Source: Planctomycetota bacterium (GTDB lineage: Bacteria > Planctomycetota > B15-G4 > SIAN01). From it: DNA of 64,000 bases. The stretch's first letter is position 1, and every line of letters starts with the position of its first letter. The notes under the pieces are model-generated. The model ran no database searches, was not told where the DNA came from, and was given only the letters and a program-made list of their open reading frames with translations. Both the position numbers and the translations under genes were made by a program. Positions 30,799 through 50,509 of the stretch are shown piece by piece. The stretch is taken from positions 1 through 64,000 of the forward strand of contig JANNXA010000027.1 of NCBI GenBank assembly GCA_031409275.1, given 5' to 3'.

Positions 30799-32022
30799 TT
30801 ATGCCCGGCGGAACGCCAGGAGGTGCTCGGCGCGGGATCGCCGGGAGAGCGCGGTGGGGGAGCGGGAGGTGCTGGCGGGCGATTCGCGCGTTTGCGCGGC
30901 GGCTGCGACGAAGTGGAGCGGCAGCCCGGCGAACGCTTCGGCGACGAGCGCTGCCGCGTCGAACTCGCGCCCGGCCGCTTCCGAGTCGCCCACCACCAGC
31001 ACGACGAGTCCGCCGGGTCGCACCACCCGCGCCAGCTCGCTGCCGCTCGCTCGCAACGCCGCGACATAGTCGGCGGCGGCGCGCGTCGGATTGGCGTTCG
31101 CCTGCGATCGACGGCCGATCTCGTGCGCCGCCGCGGCGCGCAACGGGATCGCGAGCAGCCGGGCGCGCAGCTCCTGAATGGCGTCGTAGTCGTAGGTGCC
31201 GAGGTAGGGCGGCGAACTCAGCGCGAACTGCGCGCTGCCGGTGCGCCACGGCAACGCGCGGGCATCGGCCAGCACGACCCGCGCCGCCGGGGTCTGGTGA
31301 GCGAGCGTCGCCAGCTCCGCGAGGCCGGAGCAGAGCTCCTCCGTGCGTTGCGCAAAGGCCTTCGCGGTGAAGCCCGGCGCGATGCGCTTCGCCGAGACGC
31401 CGTCGCTGGTTTCGGCCGCGCGCCGCGACACCTTGGTCAGCAGCGACGAGAAGACCAGCAGCAGCGCGTCGTGGACTTCGCGATCCGGCAACTCCTGCAG
31501 CGCGCAGCCCAGCGTGTCGAGCTCCTGCAGCACGTGCGGCTCGTACCAGCGCGCCAGATCGGGCGGGATCCCTTCCACCGTAATCGCTTCGTCGCGGCTC
31601 GAACGCTCGTGCCAGGCGCGGCGCGCGAGTCGATCGCCTGCGGCGAGGAGGCGCTGGCGTCCGGCAGGCGTCGTCGCGGCGGACTTCTGGCGCGCCAGCA
31701 GCAGCGCCAACGCGTTCACGTCGCAGCCCAGCGCCCTCCGGCCCGCGGCGCGCGCCTCGACCAGCACGGTGCCGCTGCCGCAGAACGGATCGATCACCAC
31801 GTCACCGGGTTTCGACCACGCCGCGATCAGGGTCCGCGCCAGCTGCGGATGGAGCCGCGCGGGATAGGGATGGAAGCCGTGGGTCAGTTCGCGACCGTCG
31901 CTGGTGGCCGCGCGCCATGCGGCGGCGAGCGTCGCGGCGTGATTCGAATCGCCGCGCAACGCCAGCGTGCCGTGGTACTGGGCGAGGCTCGTTCGACGCC
32001 GCTCAACCACGCGCGGCTCCAT
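30799..32022 (-). CDS. Orphan amino (N4-C/N6-A) DNA methyltransferase
   Basis: THGFHPYPA; DPFCGSGT (motif I) precedes SSPPY (motif IV). Start uncertain by a few codons. Confidence 0.82.
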   Translation of the reverse strand: MEPRVVERRRTSLAQYHGTLALRGDSNHAATLAAAWRAATSDGRELTHGFHPYPARLHPQLARTLIAAWSKPGDVVIDPFCGSGTVLVEARAAGRRALGCDVNALALLLARQKSAATTPAGRQRLLAAGDRLARRAWHERSSRDEAITVEGIPPDLARWYEPHVLQELDTLGCALQELPDREVHDALLLVFSSLLTKVSRRAAETSDGVSAKRIAPGFTAKAFAQRTEELCSGLAELATLAHQTPAARVVLADARALPWRTGSAQFALSSPPYLGTYDYDAIQELRARLLAIPLRAAAAHEIGRRSQANANPTRAAADYVAALRASGSELARVVRPGGLVVLVVGDSEAAGREFDAAALVAEAFAGLPLHFVAAAAQTRESPASTSRSPTALSRRSRAEHLLAFRRA

Positions 32023-32767
32023 CGGTACGACGGCGCCAGATCACGAAGAGGGCGACCAGCAAGGCCATGACGCCGAGGAAGATCAGCGCCAGTCGCAGCG
32101 CGTGGCGCGGGTCGCTCACGATGGCGGCACCCGCATGGCTGTAGACCAGGGTTGCTGGGAGCTGTCCGAGGCCGGTGGCGAGCAGGAACGGCAGCGCGCG
32201 CATCTTGGTGAGACCGCCGGCGTAGCTCACCACGTCGAAGCTCACGAACGGGATCAGTCGCAGCACCAGCACCGCCAGCAGCCCGTCGCGCGCGAAGAAG
32301 CGATCGGTCCGCTCGAGCAGCGCCGCGCGAAACAGCCGCTGCACGAAGGGGCGTCCGAAGGCGCGGGCCAGCCAGAAGCAAAGCGCGGCCGCCAGCTCGG
32401 CGGAGCTCCAGGAGATCAGGGCGCCAAGCCATGGCCCGTAGATCAGCGCATTCACCAGCGTGAGCGGCACCGCTGGAATCGGTGCGGCGAGCGACTGCAG
32501 GATCATCAGCAGCGAGGTGACGATCCACGCGCGGTCGCCGTAGGGGGCGAGGAAGTCGCGCAGGTCGCCCACGCCTTTGGAGACATCGGGCTGCAGCAGG
32601 AGCCGGCACGCAGTGGCGACGAAGGCGCGCGCGGCGGGCGACAGAGCGAAGAAGAGCGCAGTGGCCACCAGCGCCAGCAGCGCGATGCGGCGCGGCCAGG
32701 GCGGTGGCGCGTCCGCCGCGGGTCGTGCGGCAGCGTCGGGCGCGCGATCGTCGCTTCGGTCGTTCAT
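32003..32767 (-). CDS. TVP38/TMEM64 (DedA/SNARE-associated) membrane protein
   Basis: LQSLAAPIPA, YGPWLGALISW, LRLIPFVSFDVVSYAGGL, ATGLGQLP; ATGA overlap. Confidence 0.9.
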   Translation of the reverse strand: MNDRSDDRAPDAAARPAADAPPPWPRRIALLALVATALFFALSPAARAFVATACRLLLQPDVSKGVGDLRDFLAPYGDRAWIVTSLLMILQSLAAPIPAVPLTLVNALIYGPWLGALISWSSAELAAALCFWLARAFGRPFVQRLFRAALLERTDRFFARDGLLAVLVLRLIPFVSFDVVSYAGGLTKMRALPFLLATGLGQLPATLVYSHAGAAIVSDPRHALRLALIFLGVMALLVALFVIWRRRTDGAARG

Positions 32768-33339
32768 CGAACCTCGAGCGGAGCGGGTGGTCTTGCGGCG
32801 TCGATCCACGCAAGCGCTGCGGCGGGCGCGATCGAATCGGCGAAGTGCTCGCCGTAGTGGAGCGCGACGATCTTGCCATCGCCGCCGATCAGGAAGTCGG
32901 CCGGACTGCCGCCGATGCCGTCGCGCAACGCATCGCGCCAGCGCGGTGCGATGCCGTGGGCACGCGCCTCGCGGATGCGGGCGAGCGCGCGCGGTGCGAA
33001 GAGCGCCAGCAGGCTGCCGCGGATGCCGTACTCGCGGTACACCCGCTTCTGCGGATCGGCCAGCACCGGGAAGGGCAGCGCGTGCGGCCCGAACGCGTGG
33101 TCGCGCAGCGCTTCCGCCGGCGAATGGAAGATGCGCACGACGTTGACGTCGCGCCGCACGAACTCGGCATGGCGAGCGGCAAACTGCCGCGTCGAGAGCA
33201 CGCAAGTCGGTCAGGTGGCGTAGCGATGGAAGCTCAGCAGCCACATGCGTCCGAGCAGGGCGCGCGAGTCGAAGGTCGCCCCCGCGGCGCTCGGCAGCAC
33301 GAAGGGCGGTGCGACACTGCCGACCGAGAGCTTGGCCAT
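32764..33339 (-). CDS. AhpC/TSA (peroxiredoxin-like) selenoprotein candidate; Sec at codon 43 (TGA 33213-33211)
   Basis: GGAG + ATG 33339 gives MAKLSVGSVAPPFVLPSAAGATFDSRALLGRMWLLSFHRYAT-TGA-PTC, in frame with ORF 32764..33201 (FPVLADP, PADFLI, HYG). TGA occupies the first Cys position of CxxC. Confidence 0.85.
33173..33194 (-). promoter_or_regulatory. Candidate bacterial SECIS hairpin
   Basis: mRNA CGA(C)GCGGCA-GUU-UGCCGC-UCG; the apical loop starts with GU, 26 nt after the UGA. Confidence 0.7.
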
Positions 33340-33340
33340 C

Positions 33341-35020
33341 TCAGGACTCCGCGGTGCGCAGCTTGCGCGCGCCAATCGAGACGAGGAAGAGCGCGAGCGC
33401 CACCAGCGCGGTCGCGGCGATGCCGTTCAGCAGTGGGACGCTGCGGGATGGCGAGCCGGCGCTCGATTGCGCCACCTGCGCGAAGCTGCTCCAGGCGATG
33501 CGCATCAGTGCTGCGAGCGTCGTTGCGAGCACGAACAGCAGCGGGGCCAACGCGAAAGCGAAGCGCTTCTTGCTGCGCTTCAGCCACACGGCGAAGGTCA
33601 GCAGCGCCAGCGCGGCGAGCAGCTGGTTCGAGGCGCCAAAGAGCGTCCAGTAGCGCTTGTAGTCGTCGCGCCCGCCGGCCAGCAGCAGCGCGAGCGGAGC
33701 GGCGAGCGTGAGCAGCGTCGCGCCGCTGGCGCCGATCGTGCCGCGCCATCCCAGCAGCTCCTGCACGATGTAGCGGCCGAGGCGCGTGCAGACATCGAGC
33801 GTGTCGAAGACGAAGGTGGAGAAGGCCATCGCGCCGAAGGTCGTCGCGAACGCGAGGTGCTGCTCGCCGACCACCAGCGTCACGAAGCGACCGATGCCGT
33901 CGCCGTAGATCCGTCCCGGCGAGACGCCCGCGCTTGCCGACGGCTTCACGATCATGATCGTGGCCAGCGCGACCAGCGCGACGAACGCCTCCGCCAGCAT
34001 CGCGCCGTAGCCGACCGGCCGCGCGTGGCTTTCGCGGTCGAGCTGCTTGCTGGTGGTGCCCGAGCAGACCAGGCCATGGAAGCCGGAGCAGGCGCCGCAC
34101 GCGATGGTCACGAAGAGGAAGGGCCACGCCGCGCCGGTGGCGCCGCCCGCATCGAAGCCCTTCCAGGCCGGCTGCTCGATCGTGTAGCCGCCGCAGAAGA
34201 GGCCGATGGTTCCGGCGGCGAGCGCGCTGTAGAGGACGAAGCCTCCGAGGTAGCCGCGCGGCTGCAGGAGCAGCGAAACCGGCATCACCGACGCCACGCC
34301 GCAGTAGGCGAGGATCAGCAGCGTCCAGGTGCGATGGTCCAGCACGAAGTGGTCGGCCAGCAGCGTTCCGCTCCAGGTGGCGAGGAACGTCGCCGGCACG
34401 AAGACGACGGTCAGGAGCCACAGCGGCAGGCGCGGCAGGAAGCGTTGCACCAAGCCCAGCAGCAGCGCGAGCAGCAGGTAGAGCACGCTGGCCGCGGCGA
34501 CGGCGCCGCCCTTGTGGAAGCCCTTCGCGGCGGCGAGCTCTTCGCTGCCGTCGACGAAGGTTCCCGCCGTCAGATCCGCGAAGGCGACGATCACGTACAC
34601 CAGCGCGATCGCGATGAAGGCGAGCAGCGCGCGGCCGGCCGGCGCGCCGAGCTGCTCGCGCGTGATCTCCGCGAGGCTCCGGCCACTGTGGCGCACGGAG
34701 GCGGCCAGCGCCAGGAAGTCGTGGACCGCGCCGATCAGCACGACGCCGACGGCGATCCAGACCAGGCAAGGCAACCACCCCCACGCCTGCGCGGCGACGA
34801 TCGGCCCGGCGATCGGACCGGCCGCGGCGATCGCCGAGAAGTGCTGGCCGAACAGATAGAAGGGGCGCGTCGCGACGAAATCGTTGCCGTCGGCGTGCAC
34901 ATGCGCCGGCGTCGCGCGCGCGTCGTCGAGCGCGAGCTGGCGCGCGACGTAGCGGCCGTGCAGTCGGTAGCCGACGACGAGGAGGGCGAGGAACGCGAGC
35001 GCGATCAGTGGCAGAGCCAT
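33341..35020 (-). CDS. cstA: Carbon starvation protein A family transporter
   Basis: FGQHFSAIAAAGPIAGP, GAVHDF, LLQPRGY, PFLFVTIACGACSGFHGL, GYGAMLAE, WTLFGASNQLLA. Confidence 0.93.
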   Translation of the reverse strand: MALPLIALAFLALLVVGYRLHGRYVARQLALDDARATPAHVHADGNDFVATRPFYLFGQHFSAIAAAGPIAGPIVAAQAWGWLPCLVWIAVGVVLIGAVHDFLALAASVRHSGRSLAEITREQLGAPAGRALLAFIAIALVYVIVAFADLTAGTFVDGSEELAAAKGFHKGGAVAAASVLYLLLALLLGLVQRFLPRLPLWLLTVVFVPATFLATWSGTLLADHFVLDHRTWTLLILAYCGVASVMPVSLLLQPRGYLGGFVLYSALAAGTIGLFCGGYTIEQPAWKGFDAGGATGAAWPFLFVTIACGACSGFHGLVCSGTTSKQLDRESHARPVGYGAMLAEAFVALVALATIMIVKPSASAGVSPGRIYGDGIGRFVTLVVGEQHLAFATTFGAMAFSTFVFDTLDVCTRLGRYIVQELLGWRGTIGASGATLLTLAAPLALLLAGGRDDYKRYWTLFGASNQLLAALALLTFAVWLKRSKKRFAFALAPLLFVLATTLAALMRIAWSSFAQVAQSSAGSPSRSVPLLNGIAATALVALALFLVSIGARKLRTAES

Positions 35021-35066: not shown

Positions 35067-35700
35067 TCAGGCGGTGACGGCGGCGCTCGCGGCGACCTGC
35101 TGCTCGAGCTCGCCTGCCAGCGAGTCGAGGCTGTCGGCCGCGTTCTGCGTCTCGGTGAAGCCCTGCGCGGTCGACTCGGCCGTCCCGGCGACGGTGGTCA
35201 CTCCGTCGACGATCTCGCTGACTGCGCGCTGCACGTCGGTCTGGATCGCGACGATGCTCGCCTCGATGGTGGCGTTCAGCGCCGGCAGGTTGGTCTGCTC
35301 GGCGACGTCGTGGATGACCTTGATCACGCGGTCGATCCGGGCGCTGCGCTCGTACAGCCGCCCGACCGTCTCGTTGGTGCTCTTCGCCGCGGCAACCGCC
35401 TGCGGCGCGATCGGTCGCGGACATCGCCACCAGCTTCTCGGCGGCGGCGACGTCCGTCGCGATGGCCGCCACGGTGTCGGGACTCTCCGCGACGAGCGCC
35501 GCCAGCACGTCGGCTGGCAGCGCGTCGTGCATCATGTCCCTGTTGGGCAGGTCGACGACTGCGTCGCTCACGAGCCGCTCGCGATCCAGCGTGGCGCCAG
35601 CGTTCTGCAGCGATTAGTAGCCCTCCGTGCCGACCAGCGCCGCCGTGACGGCGCCGGCGAGACGGATGGCGGTGAGCTTCTTGCGTAGCGTCCAGATCAT
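35067..35700 (-). pseudogene. Internally deleted methyl-accepting chemotaxis protein remnant
   Basis: MIWTLRKKL...GY-stop-...DMMHDALPADVLAA, then a frameshift to VAEQTNLPALNATIEA joined directly to SIVAIQ (the ARAG...GFAVVA segment is missing). Confidence 0.75.
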
Positions 35701-35712
35701 GGAGCGGTTCCT

Positions 35713-36564
35713 GTGTCTCGAGATCGACCCAACGACCGACTCGCCGACGATCCGCTGGAAGCAGTTCGGAACCGGAGTGGAGTGGTCGGAACGGCGCGGG
35801 CGAGCTGGATCGTGCTGCCGCCTGCGCACGGAGGCGCCGCGATCGTCCGACCGCTGCTCGAGCGGTTGAAGGCGCAGGTTCGAGTGTGGGCACCGCCGCT
35901 GCCGGCCGACTGCACCGCTCCGGTCGACGTGGCCACGGCGCTCGTCGCGGCGCTCGACGCGGCCGGGTCGGAGCGGGCCGGAGTGATCGGGCTGTCGCTC
36001 GGCGGGCAATTGGCGCAAGCGCTGGTCGAGCATCACCCCCAGCGCGTCGCGGCGCTGCTGTTGGTGGCTTCCGGCGCTCCCGATCGGGCGCGCGGCCGCG
36101 CGTTGGCGCGCAGCGGATGGCTCGCGCGTTGGTTGCCGCGCCGCGTGCTGCTCGCCCGCGCTCGTGCGCAACTGGCGGAGTCGCTGTCCGAAGTCGGAGT
36201 CGCGCGCGGCTCCGAACTTCTTGCCGAGATGGCGGAGGCGACTCGTGCCGAACTGGCGGCACCACGCGCACGACTGCAGGCGAGCGATCGGTTGGGCGCG
36301 GATGCGCCGGCGGCCTTCGCCGCACGACCCGCTCCGGTGCGGCTGATCGAGCTTGCAGCGGACGGCGTGATCGCCGCGTCGGAGTCGGCGCGCTTGCGCG
36401 CGTTGTTCCCGCAGGCCCAGGTCGAGGTGATCCCCGCGCTGCGCCACGCGGCGCTGATCGGCTGGCCGGTGGCGCTGCTCGAGCGCGTCGCCGCCGCGGT
36501 GATGGAGCTGTCGGCGCAGGCGGCGCTTGGACCCGTCAGCGCGGCGCCAACAGGTTCTCGCTGA
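35713..36564 (+). CDS. Alpha/beta-fold hydrolase
   Basis: VIGLSLGG nucleophile elbow, HPQRVAALLL, D(G)VI and C-terminal RH as candidate triad residues. Confidence 0.75.
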   Translation: MSRDRPNDRLADDPLEAVRNRSGVVGTARASWIVLPPAHGGAAIVRPLLERLKAQVRVWAPPLPADCTAPVDVATALVAALDAAGSERAGVIGLSLGGQLAQALVEHHPQRVAALLLVASGAPDRARGRALARSGWLARWLPRRVLLARARAQLAESLSEVGVARGSELLAEMAEATRAELAAPRARLQASDRLGADAPAAFAARPAPVRLIELAADGVIAASESARLRALFPQAQVEVIPALRHAALIGWPVALLERVAAAVMELSAQAALGPVSAAPTGSR

Positions 36565-39100
36565 AGCGCCGCTCGCCATCGAACCAGCGCGTCGCGACCT
36601 CGAAGCCGGCGTTCGCCGCGAGCGCGTCGAGCTCCTCGGGCGCGTACTTCCACGAGTCCTCGGTGTGGATCGACTCGCCCGCGGCGAAGTCGAAGCGTGC
36701 GCCGAGGAGGTCGAGGTGCACTTCCTGTGCGCGCAGGCTTTCCAGGCGCATCTCGACGCGTCCGTCGTTGGCGTGCCAGCAGGCTCGATGGCGGAACGCG
36801 GTGAGGTCGAAGTCGCCGTCGAGTTCCCGATTGAGGCGCGCCAGCAGGTTGAGGTTGAAGCTTGCGGTGACGCCGGCCGCGTCGTCGTACGCCGCTTCGA
36901 GCGTGGCCGCGTCCTTGCGCAGGTCGGCTCCCAGCAGCAGTCGATCGTCGCGCGCGAGGCGAGCGCGCACGCCGGCCAGGAACTTCGCGGCGGCGTCGCG
37001 CGTGAAGTTCCCGACGTTGCTCCCGAGCCACAGCACGAGCTTCCGGCCCGGTGCCACCGCGTCGAGCTGCGCGATGCCATCGCCGTACTCGGCCGCGATG
37101 GCGACCACCTCGAGCGTCGCGAAGCGCTCGCGCAGCGTCGCTGCACTCTGCGCGAGCGCTGTCGGCGAGATGTCGATCATCACGTAGCGCAGCGTCGCGC
37201 GCTGATCGAGCAGCGCGGCGAGCAGGCGCTGCGTCTTCGCGGCGCTGCCGCTGCCGAGCTCGACGATGGTCGCGTCGGCCGGAGTCGCCGCCGCGATCGC
37301 GTGAGCGTGGCTCGCCAGCAACTCGTCCTCGGCGCGCGTGACGTAGTACTCGGGCGTCGCGCCGATCTCCTCGAACAGGCGTGAGCCGACGTCGTCGTAG
37401 AACCAGCGGCACGGCAGCGACTTCGCTTTCGCCGAGAGTCCCGCCACCGCATCCTCGGCCAGGCGCACGAAGGGCGGGCCGCCCATGCCTTCCCGCCAAC
37501 CCGAAGCGGCGAGGCGCGCCGCGTAGCGCTGCAGGCGGTCCGCGAGCGCGCGATCGCCGTCGACGCGGCCGCGCGCGAGCGCGAGCGTGCCGGCGTCGTC
37601 CGCCTCGAACCAACCGGGGAAGGCGCTGCCCATCACCGCCAGGGTGGCAGGCGTGCGCGCGACCAGCACGGGGCGACCGCTCGCGAGTGCCGGCACCAGC
37701 TCGGCGACGTTGCGAGCGATGGCGACCGACGACGCCACGGAAGCGCGATGCGTTGCGGCCTGCGGCGCGGTGGCGTCGGCCGTGTTCGGAACCAGTTCGA
37801 CTTCGACGGTGGCGACTGCAGCGCGCGCGCGCGCGAACGCGGCGCGGCTCGAGTTCGCGTCGCTGGCGAGCACCCACGCGAGATGGGGGAACGTCTCGGG
37901 ATGGGGCGGCGCGTGCATCACGTCGCCCGGCTCGACGCAAAGTCCCGCCGTGAGCGCCGGCATCGTCGCGATCGCGGCGATGCGCGCGGCCGCGGCGGCG
38001 ACGCCGTGCACGGTGTGTTCGCCGAAATGGCAGCGGTAGGCGAGCGCGTGGCGTCGCTCGTGCGGACCGCCCTCGAGGCGGCGGTAGTCGGGCGACTCGC
38101 CCAACGCGACCGCGATGGCGAGCTCGAACGGGTCGCGACCTGCCGCCTGCGCGAAGAGCTGCCAGAGGCCGTGGTCCTCGCCGAGCCGTCCGTTCACCTC
38201 GATCACCTGCGGTCCGTGCGGCGTCGCCCGCAGCTCGACGGAGAACCCGGCGTGATCGAGTCCGAGCGCCGTCACGGCGCGCTCGCCGGTCGTGCAGAGC
38301 GCGCGGCCGCGGTCGAAATCGAGATCGGCGGGGAGCAGGTAGCCCTCGAAATAGAGATGCGGCGGCGGAGTCTGCACCTGTTCGAGCGCCCCGAAGCAGC
38401 GCGCCTTGCCGTTCCCGACGAAGCCATCGATCTCCATGGGCAGCCCGGCGGCGAAGCTCTCGCACAGGAAATGGCGGGTTGGATCGGGACCGAGTTCGAG
38501 GCCGGCGGCGCGCGCGAACTCGACGAGGCGGGCGACGTCGAGCGAATGGGGAAGCGCCGCCTGCAGCCGCTCGACCGCGGCGTCGAGCTCCTGCGCGTCG
38601 TCGACCTTCACGACGAGACGCGCCATGGTCGACGCGAACGGCTTCAAGATCACCGGAAATCCATGCGCGGCGGCGAAGGCACGTGCTTCGCCGCGTCCGC
38701 TGCAAAGGGCGAACGCCGGTTGTCCGACGTTCGTCGCCGCGAGCGCTTCGCGTGTGCGCGCCTTGCTGATCGTGCGCAGGACCGCGGCAGGCGACGGCGC
38801 GGGCCATCCGCGCGGCGCGGCGAACAGCGATCCGCTCGGCAGCGAGGCTTCGGTCTGCAGCAGGATCCCATCGAGCCGCGCCAGCGCCGGCGCCTTCGCG
38901 AGCGCCACCACCACGTCCGCGACCCGTTCCGCCGGCGGCAGGAGCACCGCATCGGCGTAGAGCGAGCGATCGGCCGGCGCGATCCAGTCGTCGCCGAGGA
39001 TCAGCTCGATCTGGTGCGCGGCGAGCCAGGCGCGGTGGCGCCCCAGCAGTTCGCGACGCACGCGCCCTTCGCCCGGGTAGAGATGGAGCAGCCGTCGCAT
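36536..39100 (-). CDS. Fusion protein: ATP-grasp ligase + GT-B-like linker + EgtD-type L-histidine N-alpha-methyltransferase
   Basis: Single ORF, GAGG before ATG 39100. ATP-grasp: SKARTR, FPVILKP, CESF, VELR, IEVNGRLG. EgtD: FYDDVGSRLFEEI...PEYY, ELGSGS, GSNVGNF, AYDDAAGVTASFNLN, VEMRL, IHTEDSWKY. Confidence 0.88.
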   Translation of the reverse strand: MRRLLHLYPGEGRVRRELLGRHRAWLAAHQIELILGDDWIAPADRSLYADAVLLPPAERVADVVVALAKAPALARLDGILLQTEASLPSGSLFAAPRGWPAPSPAAVLRTISKARTREALAATNVGQPAFALCSGRGEARAFAAAHGFPVILKPFASTMARLVVKVDDAQELDAAVERLQAALPHSLDVARLVEFARAAGLELGPDPTRHFLCESFAAGLPMEIDGFVGNGKARCFGALEQVQTPPPHLYFEGYLLPADLDFDRGRALCTTGERAVTALGLDHAGFSVELRATPHGPQVIEVNGRLGEDHGLWQLFAQAAGRDPFELAIAVALGESPDYRRLEGGPHERRHALAYRCHFGEHTVHGVAAAAARIAAIATMPALTAGLCVEPGDVMHAPPHPETFPHLAWVLASDANSSRAAFARARAAVATVEVELVPNTADATAPQAATHRASVASSVAIARNVAELVPALASGRPVLVARTPATLAVMGSAFPGWFEADDAGTLALARGRVDGDRALADRLQRYAARLAASGWREGMGGPPFVRLAEDAVAGLSAKAKSLPCRWFYDDVGSRLFEEIGATPEYYVTRAEDELLASHAHAIAAATPADATIVELGSGSAAKTQRLLAALLDQRATLRYVMIDISPTALAQSAATLRERFATLEVVAIAAEYGDGIAQLDAVAPGRKLVLWLGSNVGNFTRDAAAKFLAGVRARLARDDRLLLGADLRKDAATLEAAYDDAAGVTASFNLNLLARLNRELDGDFDLTAFRHRACWHANDGRVEMRLESLRAQEVHLDLLGARFDFAAGESIHTEDSWKYAPEELDALAANAGFEVATRWFDGERRFSENLLAPR

Positions 39101-39181: not shown

Positions 39182-40678
39182 ATGTGGCACCCTACTCCCG
39201 CGATTCGCCACCCGCTGCCGCCGGCGAACTGGCCAACGGCGGAGGAGGCGGCGCGCAGTCGCTGGTTCCAGCCGGTGCGCATCGCCGGCGTGACGCTGGC
39301 GCAGCGAACCTGGGTTCCGGCGATGGTGCCGTGGCGCGCCAGCGACGACGGGATGGTGACGGACGACGTCGTCGATTGGTACGCCCGCTTCGCCGCGGGT
39401 CGTCCCGGCGCGATCGTGGTCGAGGCGACCGGCATCCGCGACGTGCCGAGCGGCCCGCTGCTGCGCATCGGCGACGATCGTTTCGTGCCGGGACTGCGCC
39501 GCCTCGTCGAGGCGGTCCGGGACGCGAGCGGTGGCGCGACGCGGCTGTTCGTGCAGTTGATCGACTTCCTCGCGGTCAAGCGGCGGCCGAGCAAGGAGAA
39601 GTACTTCGGCCGTCACCTCGAATTGACGGCGCGCCATCGTTCTGCGCTGGCCGCGGCCACGGCCGACGATTCCTGGCTCGTCGCGCCGGAACCGCAGCTG
39701 CGCGACTTCCTCGCCCGCGCCGACCTGTCGCTGCTCGAATCGCTGCTCGACGCGCGCGAACTCGAGGCCTACCGCTTCGGCTACCGCGAGCGGGTCACCG
39801 ACACGCACCTAAATCACGTGCGCGACTTGCCGACGACGTTGCCGCCGCTCTTCGCCACGGCGGCGAGTCGTGCGCGTCGCGCCGGCTTCGATGGCGTCGA
39901 GCTCCACTACGCGCACGCCTACACCATGGCGTCGTTCCTCTCGCGGCTGAACACGCGCAAGGACGGCTACGGCGGTTCGCGTCCGGAGCGCGTCCGTCTT
40001 GCGCTCGAGGTGGCGCGCGCGGTCCGTCGCGCCGTCGGCAGCGACTACGCGATGGGGGTGCGCTTCCTCGGCGACGAGGGGATCGAGGGAGGCAGCCGGA
40101 TCGACGATGCGACGTGGTTCGCGCTCGAGTTCGCGCGCGCCGGCTTCGACTTCCTCTCGATCAGCAAGGGCGGCCGCTTCGAGGACGCCAAGCAGCCGGC
40201 GGTCGGCGTCGCGGTCTATCCCTACACCGGTCCGAGCGGCTACGAGTGCATGCCCACCGTGCTCTCCGACGCGCAGGGGCCGTTCGGCCGCAACGTGCCG
40301 CTCGCGGGCGCGATCCGTCGCCGACTGCGTGAAGTCGGCTACGACACGCCGGTGGTCACGGCGGGGGGCATCGCCACCTTCGAGCAGGCCGAGCAGATCC
40401 TCGCCCACGGCGACGCGGACATCGTCGCCGCCGCTCGCCAGTCGCTCGCCGATCCCGACTGGTTCCTGAAGATCCGCCTCGGCCATGGCGCCGCGGTCCG
40501 TCGCTGCGAGTTCACCAACTACTGCGAGGGGCTCGACCAGATGCACAAGCAGGTCACCTGCAAGTTGTGGGATCGGATCGACCGCGACGGTGCCGACGTC
40601 AAGCGGAGCCTCGATGGCCGCCGCCTCATCGCGCCGGCGTGGGTGCCACCGCCCGAATTGGCGCGTCCGACGAACTGA
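39182..40678 (+). CDS. NADH:flavin oxidoreductase (Old Yellow Enzyme-like)
   Basis: VPAMV, IVVEATG, AGFDGVELHYAHAY, NTRKDGYGG, AGGI, ARQSLADPDW; C-terminal CEFTNYC...C. Confidence 0.9.
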   Translation: MWHPTPAIRHPLPPANWPTAEEAARSRWFQPVRIAGVTLAQRTWVPAMVPWRASDDGMVTDDVVDWYARFAAGRPGAIVVEATGIRDVPSGPLLRIGDDRFVPGLRRLVEAVRDASGGATRLFVQLIDFLAVKRRPSKEKYFGRHLELTARHRSALAAATADDSWLVAPEPQLRDFLARADLSLLESLLDARELEAYRFGYRERVTDTHLNHVRDLPTTLPPLFATAASRARRAGFDGVELHYAHAYTMASFLSRLNTRKDGYGGSRPERVRLALEVARAVRRAVGSDYAMGVRFLGDEGIEGGSRIDDATWFALEFARAGFDFLSISKGGRFEDAKQPAVGVAVYPYTGPSGYECMPTVLSDAQGPFGRNVPLAGAIRRRLREVGYDTPVVTAGGIATFEQAEQILAHGDADIVAAARQSLADPDWFLKIRLGHGAAVRRCEFTNYCEGLDQMHKQVTCKLWDRIDRDGADVKRSLDGRRLIAPAWVPPPELARPTN

Positions 40679-48401: not shown

Positions 48402-49394
48402 ATGACCGCCGAATCGATCGATGCTGCGAGCGACGCCCGGCGCGAGGCCGTGCGCGACGTCTACGCCCAGGCCGCGCTCGAGCCCGACACGAGCCTCTGC
48501 TGCGTCGATGGCGGCACGTGGACGCTGCCCGACCTCGTCTTCCCGCCGCGCATGCTGGAGATGAACTACGGCTGCGGCTCGACCGTGAACCCCTCCGATC
48601 TTTCCGGGACGCGGCCGATCCTCTACGTCGGCGTCGGCGGCGGCCTCGAGGCGCTGCAGTTCGCCTACTTCCGTCGCCAGCGCGGCGGCGTCATCGCCGT
48701 CGACCCGGTCGGCGAGATGCGCGCGGCCGCGCGCGCCAACCTGCTCGAAGCGGAACGGCTCAATCCGTGGTTCAAGAGCGAGTTCGTCGACGTGGTCGAT
48801 TGTCGCGCCGAGGAGCTGCCGGTCGCCGACCACACCGTCGACGTGGTGGCGCAGAACTGCCTCTTCAACGTCTTCGTCGACGGCGATCTCGCCAAGGCGC
48901 TCGCCGAGGTCGCGCGCGTGCTGCGCGTCGGCGGTCGTTTCTCCACCAGCGATCCCGTCACTCCGCGCCCGATCCCGCAGGCGCTTCGCGATGACCACAC
49001 GCTACGGGCGCGCTGCGTGTCCGGCTGCGTGCTCTACGACGAATACCTCGCGGCGATCCATGCCGCCGGCTTCCAGCAGATCGTGGTGCGGGCGCGGCGG
49101 CCGTATCGACTCCTGACGCCGGCCGAGTTCCCCGCGCTGCGCGAGGAGCTGCTGCTCGAGAGCCTTGAAGTGCTGGCCATCAAGGGGCCGCGCCTCGAGG
49201 CGAAGCCCGACCTCTACACCGGTCGCTGCGCCACCTTCGTCGGCGCGGGCACCTGGTATCGCGACGACAAGTTCCCGTTCCCATCCGGGACGCCGATGCA
49301 GGTCTCCGATCGAGTCGCGCTCGAGCTCGGCGCGCGCGCCGACTTCCGCGTCACTCCGCCGACGTTCCACGCGCGCGGGCCGGGGTGCTGCTGA
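48402..49394 (+). CDS. arsM: Arsenite S-adenosylmethyltransferase, arsenosugar-associated type
   Basis: LCC, EMNYGCGSTVNP, YVGVGGGLEALQFAYF, VAQNCLFN, RARCVSG, RARRPYRLL, terminal GCC. Confidence 0.82.
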   Translation: MTAESIDAASDARREAVRDVYAQAALEPDTSLCCVDGGTWTLPDLVFPPRMLEMNYGCGSTVNPSDLSGTRPILYVGVGGGLEALQFAYFRRQRGGVIAVDPVGEMRAAARANLLEAERLNPWFKSEFVDVVDCRAEELPVADHTVDVVAQNCLFNVFVDGDLAKALAEVARVLRVGGRFSTSDPVTPRPIPQALRDDHTLRARCVSGCVLYDEYLAAIHAAGFQQIVVRARRPYRLLTPAEFPALREELLLESLEVLAIKGPRLEAKPDLYTGRCATFVGAGTWYRDDKFPFPSGTPMQVSDRVALELGARADFRVTPPTFHARGPGCC

Positions 49395-50509
49395 TGGCCG
49401 GCGACCCGAAGCGAGTGCGTTTTCACGTCATCGGCGGCTTCCTCGGCGCCGGCAAGACGACCGCGCTGCTGCGCCTCGCCGCGGAGTTCCAGGCGCAGGG
49501 GCTGAAGGTCGGCCTCATCACCAACGACCAGGCCGCGAACCTCGTCGACACGGGGGCGGCGCGCGCGGGGGGCTTTCGCGTCGAGGAGGTCGCCGGCGCC
49601 TGCTTCTGCTGCAAGTTCGATGACCTCGCGCGCCTTGCCGAGAAGCTGCGTGTCGAAGATCGCCCCGACGTGCTGATCGGCGAGCCGGTCGGCAGCTGCA
49701 CCGATCTCGCGGCGACCGTCGTGAAGCCGTTGCAGCGCCTCTACGGCGACCGCTACTCGCTCGCGCCCTACTCGGTCCTCGTCGATCCGACGCGCGCGCG
49801 GCAGATCGTGCTCGATCGCGGATTCGGCGGCTTTTCCGCCAAGGTGGCGTACGTCTTCCAGAAGCAGCTCGAGGAGGCCGACCTGATCGGCCTCAACAAG
49901 ATCGACCTGCTCACGGCTGCGCAGCGCGACGAACTGCAGGGCGCGCTCGCTCGCGAGTTCCCGAAGGCGCGCGTGCTGCCGCTTTCCGGCCTCACCGGCG
50001 CCGGCTTCGCGGAGTGGCGCGCTGCGCTCGCCGAGCCGGTCGCGTCCGGCGGCAACGCGGCCGAAGTCGACTACGACCTCTACGCGGAAGGCGAAGCGGA
50101 ACTCGGTTGGTTGAACCTCGCGTTCGATCTCGCGGCCGCGCGGCCGTTCGCGGCCGAGGTCCTGGTGCGCGATGCCGTGACCGCGTTGCAGCGGGATCTG
50201 CAGGGCCGCGGCGAAGTCGCGCACGCGAAGGTGCTGTTCGAATCGAACGGCGCGACGGTGATCGCCAACCACGTGGGCGGCGGGACGAGCGTGCGCGTGT
50301 CGCGGCCAGGTGCCTTGCTGGCGAGCACGGGGCGATTGGTGGTGAACGCTCGTGTCCACCTTGCGCCCGAGCTCCTGCGCGCCGCAGCGGACCGCGCGCT
50401 CGCCGAGGTCCTCGCGGCGCACGGTGCCGTCGCCACCTTGATCGAGGCCGCGCAATTTCGGCCGGGGCGGCCGGTTCCGACCCACCGCGACCTGCCGGTC
50501 GAGGGATGA
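49394..50509 (+). CDS. CobW/COG0523-like (G3E) metallochaperone GTPase
   Basis: GGFLGAGKTT Walker A, ITNDQ, GACFCC (CxCC), EPVGSCTD, NKID; TGATG overlap with arsM. Confidence 0.88.
   Translation: MAGDPKRVRFHVIGGFLGAGKTTALLRLAAEFQAQGLKVGLITNDQAANLVDTGAARAGGFRVEEVAGACFCCKFDDLARLAEKLRVEDRPDVLIGEPVGSCTDLAATVVKPLQRLYGDRYSLAPYSVLVDPTRARQIVLDRGFGGFSAKVAYVFQKQLEEADLIGLNKIDLLTAAQRDELQGALAREFPKARVLPLSGLTGAGFAEWRAALAEPVASGGNAAEVDYDLYAEGEAELGWLNLAFDLAAARPFAAEVLVRDAVTALQRDLQGRGEVAHAKVLFESNGATVIANHVGGGTSVRVSRPGALLASTGRLVVNARVHLAPELLRAAADRALAEVLAAHGAVATLIEAAQFRPGRPVPTHRDLPVEG

Follow-up and report, generated by a model that had tools for sequence, protein, structure and literature searches.

The window studied here is a stretch of 64,000 nucleotides from a Planctomycetota bacterium (G000:C27:1-64000, the genome G000 being 5.6 Mb long and 93% complete; genomes, contigs, loci and proteins are cited below by our own G, C, L and P numbers). 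On its reverse strand, one gene had been predicted from the letters alone to encode an ATP-grasp ligase fused to a histidine-type EgtD methyltransferase in an uninterrupted open reading frame (ORF) of 854 amino acids (aa). This is borne out: the translation of 39100-36536 has 0 internal stops, Pfam places ATP-grasp_4 at residues 147-307 (E 2.5e-8) and Methyltransf_33 at residues 548-851 (E 7e-105), the EgtD model TIGR03438 matches as well, and the motifs VTASFNLN, VEMRL and TEDS are present as quoted. Between the two enzymes lies a third element, a remnant of the selenosugar synthase SenB, and the gene is made up as follows.

36536..39100, reverse strand: whole ORF of 854 aa, ATP-grasp ligase, SenB remnant and EgtD (translation, domain searches, full-length model)
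37796..39100, reverse strand: ATP-grasp domain of the L-amino-acid-ligase type, residues 1-435 (profile, model, structure comparison, conserved residues)
37730..37795, reverse strand: short junction, predicted disordered, about residues 436-457 (predicted local distance difference test, pLDDT, <50 at 441-457)
37496..37723, reverse strand: C-terminal remnant of SenB, about residues 460-535 (TIGR04348, alignment to SenB fused with EgtD, PDB matches)
36539..37474, reverse strand: EgtD histidine N-alpha-trimethyltransferase domain, residues 543-854 (TIGR03438, PDB EgtD match, residue check)

The upstream frame is open to 39808; since this extension overlaps a divergent flavin-oxidoreductase gene starting at 39182 and homologues share a Met start equivalent to 39100, the true start codon is likely at 39100. 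The gene stands singly, flanked by that oxidoreductase and by a convergent alpha/beta hydrolase, and a scan of promoters and terminators found nothing. Contigs of two of the four sequencing runs cover the entire fused gene with zero differences, and a contig of a third run covers 37182-38139, including the junction, also with zero differences; all four runs belong to one study, and two are possibly the source of the window DNA itself. These contigs from three runs, which agree throughout the critical 37400-37850, together with homologues of the same build rule out an assembly chimera at the junction. The homologues fall in five other protein clusters (P0002-P0006, 745-782 aa, 58-61% identity), which the window protein exceeds in length by about 95 aa, and the named close relatives belong to the Planctomycetota. 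In the full-length model (mean pLDDT 90.5, predicted template modelling score, pTM, 0.57) the domains are confidently modelled while their mutual position is unfixed.

For the ATP-grasp profile the best PDB match is BL00235/3vot (E 2.3e-25). The model of the domain (pLDDT 94) compares with 3vot at Z 33.4 and a root-mean-square deviation of 2.9 over 380 residues, followed by 4dim and BacD (both Z 30.8), RizA (29.8) and PurT (29.3), so that the modelled three-domain fold is closest to L-amino acid ligases, with a modest lead over other ATP-grasp enzymes (PurT-like ones about 4 Z units behind). K113, K153, E214, E289, E301, N303 and R305 are kept in 95-100% of 63 family rows, which include a few duplicates; all of these except N303 align with 3vot, and from general knowledge of ATP-grasp enzymes we take the six to be ATP/Mg-binding and catalytic residues. 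While BL00235, BacD/YwfE and RizA are thus the best sequence and structural matches, the N-terminal domain is only 14-19% identical to them and carries the family-specific invariants E84, S157, R161, D188, R191, Q241, Y254, D309, P405 and H406. A profile search gave 63 representatives at E <=1e-30, mostly stand-alone proteins, whose named members come from Planctomycetota, one Dehalococcoidia and one Melainabacteria. The family occurs in 7 of 42 genomes of the window's own class and in 25 of 251 of a neighbouring class, where six candidates per genome were scored and carriers may be missed. By these comparisons the ATP-grasp half is a member of an L-amino-acid-ligase-like family without a name. 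In a quick IQ-TREE search (SH-aLRT support only), fusions bearing the SenB tail group with split loci (support 99), fusions without the tail make up a second group (92), and P0038, a ligase fused to a divergent PF10017 domain, sits on a distant branch; fusion of ligase and methyltransferase would therefore have arisen at least twice (the EgtD fusions and P0038), possibly three times.

EgtD trimethylates histidine with S-adenosylmethionine (SAM), and EgtB then adds a cysteine sulfur on the way to ergothioneine. The methyltransferase half exceeds the TIGR03438 cut-off (351.9 vs 290.9 bits) and matches EgtD in the PDB at E 6e-67. The call of a His-specific EgtD stands, as 13 of the 14 checked His/SAM-site positions are identical to mycobacterial EgtD; the exception is Thr163, replaced by Asn, which is common to all 11 canonical EgtD rows checked, fusions of SenB with EgtD included. 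Among these positions, F216, N217, M252 and K286 are counted as site residues. The site roles of Y39, F47, Y56, D113, T163, N166, Y206, T213, E282 and S284 have been described (PMC8593015). Because the carboxylate binders Tyr56, Tyr206 and Ser284 are kept, the fused domain should act on free histidine, and both enzyme domains look functional.

The original prediction also remarked that no egtB lies nearby. This holds for the window contig, which has no egtB or senA match, but a type II egtB lies elsewhere in the genome (TIGR03440 523.9 vs 360 bits, G000:C14:327799-328971), and the local absence carries little weight. The encoded EgtB is of the Chloracidobacterium type (best PDB match E 6e-115, vs 2e-33 for type I), which uses plain cysteine (PMC13645936). 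Since the fused domain is the only EgtD of the genome, it most likely feeds ordinary ergothioneine synthesis too, and the implied separation of the gene from that pathway is not upheld. Both enzymes of the pathway known from Mycobacterium EgtD and Chloracidobacterium EgtB are encoded here with the expected motifs, with the difference that EgtD forms part of a ligase fusion and egtB is on another contig. A GCS2-family glutamate-cysteine ligase was not found in this 93%-complete genome.

The extra segment of about 95 aa matches the end of the SenB model (TIGR04348 positions 230-292 of 310, E 7.5e-5). It is 36-41% identical over 61-89 aa to four intact proteins in which SenB is fused to EgtD (SenB::EgtD), the alignment continuing into their EgtD start, and the four PDB matches with E <0.001 among the seven listed are all of the SenB family. 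Such a remnant could not function as a glycosyltransferase. SenB::EgtD proteins with both domains over cut-off are encoded at L055, L062, L063 and L112. The order ligase, senB::egtD, senA is seen in G002, of the same genus (L055), and in the metagenome loci L062 and L063; at L055 the contig ends within senA, and G002 has a SenA over cut-off at the end of another contig. The tail-bearing fusion is common to the window and G004 (69-78% identity), ligase and egtD are separate neighbours in G003 and L061, and no SenA or SenB over cut-off was found in G000, G003, G004 or G005. A SenB-model match on contig C22 (59 bits vs cut-off 300) was considered as the missing front of senB and proved to be a full-length glycosyltransferase-like ORF. 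A selenophosphate synthetase gene (senC/selD) that exceeds its cut-off and has a single in-frame TGA is present on contig C40, not linked to the fused gene. Compared with the described selenoneine cluster of senA, senB and senC with egtD (PMC11030361), the relatives at L062, L063 and L112 likewise have SenA, SenB and EgtD over the NCBIfam cut-offs; they differ in the extra ligase and in the fusion of SenB to EgtD, and in G000 senA and most of senB were not found. Read in this way, the window gene is a collapsed selenoneine operon of ATP-grasp ligase, senB::egtD and senA. In the simplest history, an in-frame deletion of the senB front would have fused the ligase with the SenB tail and EgtD, and senA would have been lost, the order of events being our reconstruction. 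Several SenB matches of the neighbouring class also contain one in-frame TGA (e.g. G215:C334:49429-50358 and G121:C16:17842-18765) and may represent a selenocysteine-containing SenB.

As for selection, the ratio of nonsynonymous to synonymous substitution (dN/dS) is 0.23-0.41 for the ligase in all four pairs, 0.46-0.50 for EgtD (two pairs) and 0.65 for the SenB remnant; the adjacent oxidoreductase has 0.28. These values, by the Nei-Gojobori method, are rough in this GC-rich DNA. The ligase is by this estimate under purifying selection. Relaxed selection on one enzyme domain, named beforehand as a sign of accident, was not seen, both domains having dN/dS <0.5 between the window and G004; a recent accidental fusion with one decaying domain is rejected on this ground and because fusion and remnant are shared at 69-78% identity.

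Beyond the window, the ligase is linked to egt and sen genes in what we count as at least six arrangements. Besides the order ligase, senB::egtD, senA given above, these are senB::egtD, senA, ligase (L112); ligase, egtD, senA (L113); senA, ligase (L053, L064, L065, L070); egtB followed by the ligase::egtD fusion (L052, L060); and ligase, egtD (L051, L061). Stop and start codons overlap or leave a 1-nt gap at four of seven ligase junctions examined. An egt/sen-type gene adjoins the ligase in 16 of 23 metagenome loci, a set that includes several near-duplicates and in which only some neighbours were classified by NCBIfam. SenA-like genes a few kb from the ligase at L120 (2427-3704) and L121 (2903-4189) were not counted as linked senA, for they are under cut-off and have lost the metal (iron)-binding histidines. 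In the 251 genomes of the neighbouring class, the 25 ligase carriers (14 genera) have EgtD in 22 cases and SenA in 17, against 89 and 48 among the 226 non-carriers, and senA lies within about 3 kb of the ligase in 12 carriers; the Fisher p of the co-occurrence, about 3e-6, is overstated as kin are not independent. Among EgtD-bearing genomes only, the enrichment of SenA is weak (17/22 vs 46/89, p 0.03 uncorrected and likewise overstated).

A PF10017 domain is found in 32 of 32 ligase carriers of both classes, in a search covering 36 chosen genomes of which four are non-carriers. Three carriers without canonical EgtD have no EgtB or SenA match either; what they keep is a divergent PF10017 protein that is not linked to the ligase and shows 46-48% identity to the fused domain of P0038; this points to the methyltransferase, rather than the sulfoxide synthase, as the constant partner. 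The divergent EgtD-like methyltransferase (L132:2410-3339, L133:6163-7176, L134:5562-6500), which has lost the His-binding residues, stands in these three genomes without EgtB and SenA divergently beside an MNIO-like (DUF692-type) gene and a small partner gene.

Tailoring of thio-imidazoles by ATP-grasp enzymes has been published, though with the opposite peptide orientation. According to Abbott et al. 2026 (PMC13674229), AshB and TgiB, encoded beside sulfoxide synthases, make Phe- or gamma-Glu-2-thiohistidine, the product of AshB being Phe-2-thiohistidine; the clusters of NHISS and ATP-grasp genes yield actinothioneine and thioglutine; all synthases of the network are OvoA-branch, those tested having used histidine; and enzymatic tailoring of thio/seleno-imidazoles is called "exceedingly rare". 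The present loci are alike in that an ATP-grasp gene clusters with a sulfoxide or selenoxide synthase and peptide tailoring of a thio-imidazole is proposed, and differ from that account in that the partners are EgtD with hercynine-type SenA or type II EgtB. The partner synthases score over the SenA or EgtB cut-off and far below that of OvoA, and the RimK family score of the ATP-grasp domain (28 vs cut-off 143) argues against TgiB. AshB was compared by eye and with one short motif, which matched none of the fetched proteins. SenA uses a selenosugar and carries an Asn-Phe hercynine motif that binds the trimethylammonium group (PMC11030361). This motif is kept in 12 of 12 linked SenA proteins inspected and in the linked EgtB proteins, so the products of linked SenA should have no alpha N-H, and acylation of the AshB/TgiB type would be impossible for the products of the linked synthases. 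No occurrence of EgtD, SenA or Planctomyc- was met in the available part of the supplement of PMC13674229, whose network figure could still contain a member of the ligase family. In the literature searched, which left out most subscription journals, no description was found of the ligase family, of amides or conjugates of ergothioneine or hercynine, of selenoneine derivatives, or of selenoneine in Planctomycetota. We regard this as a real and conserved variant of thio/seleno-imidazole tailoring that has apparently not been described before, its chemistry being proposed from sequence.

If the ligase works on the products of these operons, which would lack an alpha N-H, the carboxylate is the handle left, and we propose that the enzyme activates this group on hercynine, ergothioneine or selenoneine and turns it into an amide, a tentative reading whose probability we put a little short of even. 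The original prediction likewise had the betaine ligated through its carboxylate, an idea that now has comparative support. The EgtD domain would make hercynine (trimethyl-histidine) from histidine, an acyl phosphate would form on the carboxylate of hercynine, ergothioneine or selenoneine at the expense of ATP, and an amine or amino acid would attack it to give hercynyl-X or ergothioneinyl-X, or selenoneinyl-X in relatives keeping senA and senB; the ligation step is drawn from fold, linkage and exclusion. A wider and more doubtful proposal is that the family represents the first carboxylate-tailoring enzyme of the hercynine branch, using a trimethylammonium amino acid as acyl donor for ergothioneinyl- and selenoneinyl-amides or peptides. 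These would form a class of sulfur and selenium metabolites new for Planctomycetota, and a sister branch might do the same with a non-histidine betaine made by the divergent EgtD-like methyltransferase.

Several points weigh against the amidation of hercynine-type carboxylates. No L-amino-acid ligase is known to accept a quaternary-ammonium acyl donor, although no search was aimed at this point. The only characterised ligases of thiohistidine clusters use a free amine (PMC13674229). The fusion was born of the loss of senB and can be a tolerated accident; having arisen via a deletion inside a selenoneine operon, it is by itself weak proof of a shared reaction. In the neighbouring class, an intact senA beside the ligase is missing in 13 of 25 carriers, and the ligase is optional, being absent from 89 of 111 EgtD-bearing genomes. 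Some copies have other neighbours, a gene resembling glutamine synthetase at L117 and L128 and one for an FAD oxidoreductase at L122 and L123, and no conserved neighbour points to the acceptor amine. Finally, the divergent methyltransferase lacks the His-binding residues, and its branch likely uses another substrate.

These facts partly suit a rather unlikely explanation in which the ligase is a passenger making a dipeptide unrelated to hercynine chemistry, merely co-expressed, and the fusion is a harmless by-product of the senB deletion. The SenB remnant shows such an origin, the genes are still separate in sister genomes (L051, L061), a chemoreceptor gene about 0.8 kb past the 3' end has likewise decayed by deletion, the 13 carriers just mentioned do not adjoin an intact senA, and the full-length model (pTM 0.57) gives no fixed domain arrangement. 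However, mere co-expression sits poorly with a linkage that persists through six or more gene orders and the replacement of senA by egtB, with the methyltransferase found in every one of the 32 carriers, with the separate fusion to a different PF10017 subfamily in P0038, and with G001, a 94%-complete genome of the same genus that has no match to ligase, EgtD or EgtB. It is less probable, and to us unlikely, that the ligase takes histidine, or 2-thio/2-selenohistidine left unmethylated, and acylates its free alpha-amine, so that X-His-type dipeptides form in a side branch competing with EgtD. AshB, by eye of the same broad ligase type, makes Phe-2-thiohistidine (PMC13674229), and many loci have ligase and senA with no adjacent egtD; but the linked SenA and EgtB carry the hercynine motif while the published synthases are OvoA-branch, EgtD is enriched among carriers, the AshB motif matched 0 fetched proteins, and fusion to an enzyme that would block the amine is awkward.

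Two further explanations find little room. That the ligase makes a thiol or selenol carrier, e.g. a gamma-glutamylcysteine-like peptide, for the sulfoxide or selenoxide synthase would fit the missing GCS2-family ligase, and is nevertheless very improbable, given that the genome's EgtB is of the type using plain cysteine (PMC13645936) and SenA takes a selenosugar (PMC11030361), that 48 of 65 SenA genomes have no ligase, and that three carriers have no such synthase at all. Least probable to us is that the ligase first makes His-X, whose N-terminus is trimethylated afterwards by the fused EgtD. A product of the same kind would be expected, the fusion would be explained, and Thr163 is replaced by Asn here; yet Asn163 is shared by the 11 canonical rows, all three residues that bind the carboxylate are retained, and EgtB has no other EgtD to draw on in this genome.

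Some further observations concern the surroundings. The decayed chemoreceptor gene (window 35068-35700, reverse strand) shows an early stop, a frame change and a large internal deletion relative to a 657-aa orthologue in L050. Next to it, 32003-35020 (reverse strand) carries genes for a CstA transporter, a redox protein related to AhpC/SelL and a member of the DedA family; cstA also lies downstream of the ligase-egtD locus in L050, L051, L061 and L062, which plain synteny may explain. Upstream of senA-ligase pairs or of a lone ligase, a gene for a VIT-family membrane protein is found repeatedly (L053, L064-L068, L074, L075, L114, L119, L125, L127, L130), often near thioredoxin-like, rhodanese and MoaA-like genes. 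Farther along the window, 48402-49394 (forward strand) gives a near-cut-off match to the arsenosugar arsenite methyltransferase ArsM (379.7 vs 400 bits) and ends in Cys-Cys, and a CobW-family GTPase follows immediately (49385-50509, forward strand).

The locus clearly records how a selenoneine operon collapsed to a state with ergothioneine only, the ligase being retained. The ligases published as examples require a free amine, so that ergothioneine and selenoneine are beyond their reach (PMC13674229). If our proposal is true, tailoring by a ligase tied to EgtD, SenA and EgtB would take in these two best-known members and could yield the first selenoneine conjugate. The fused protein and its intact relatives at L062, L112 and L113 make this reading testable with one or a few purified enzymes.

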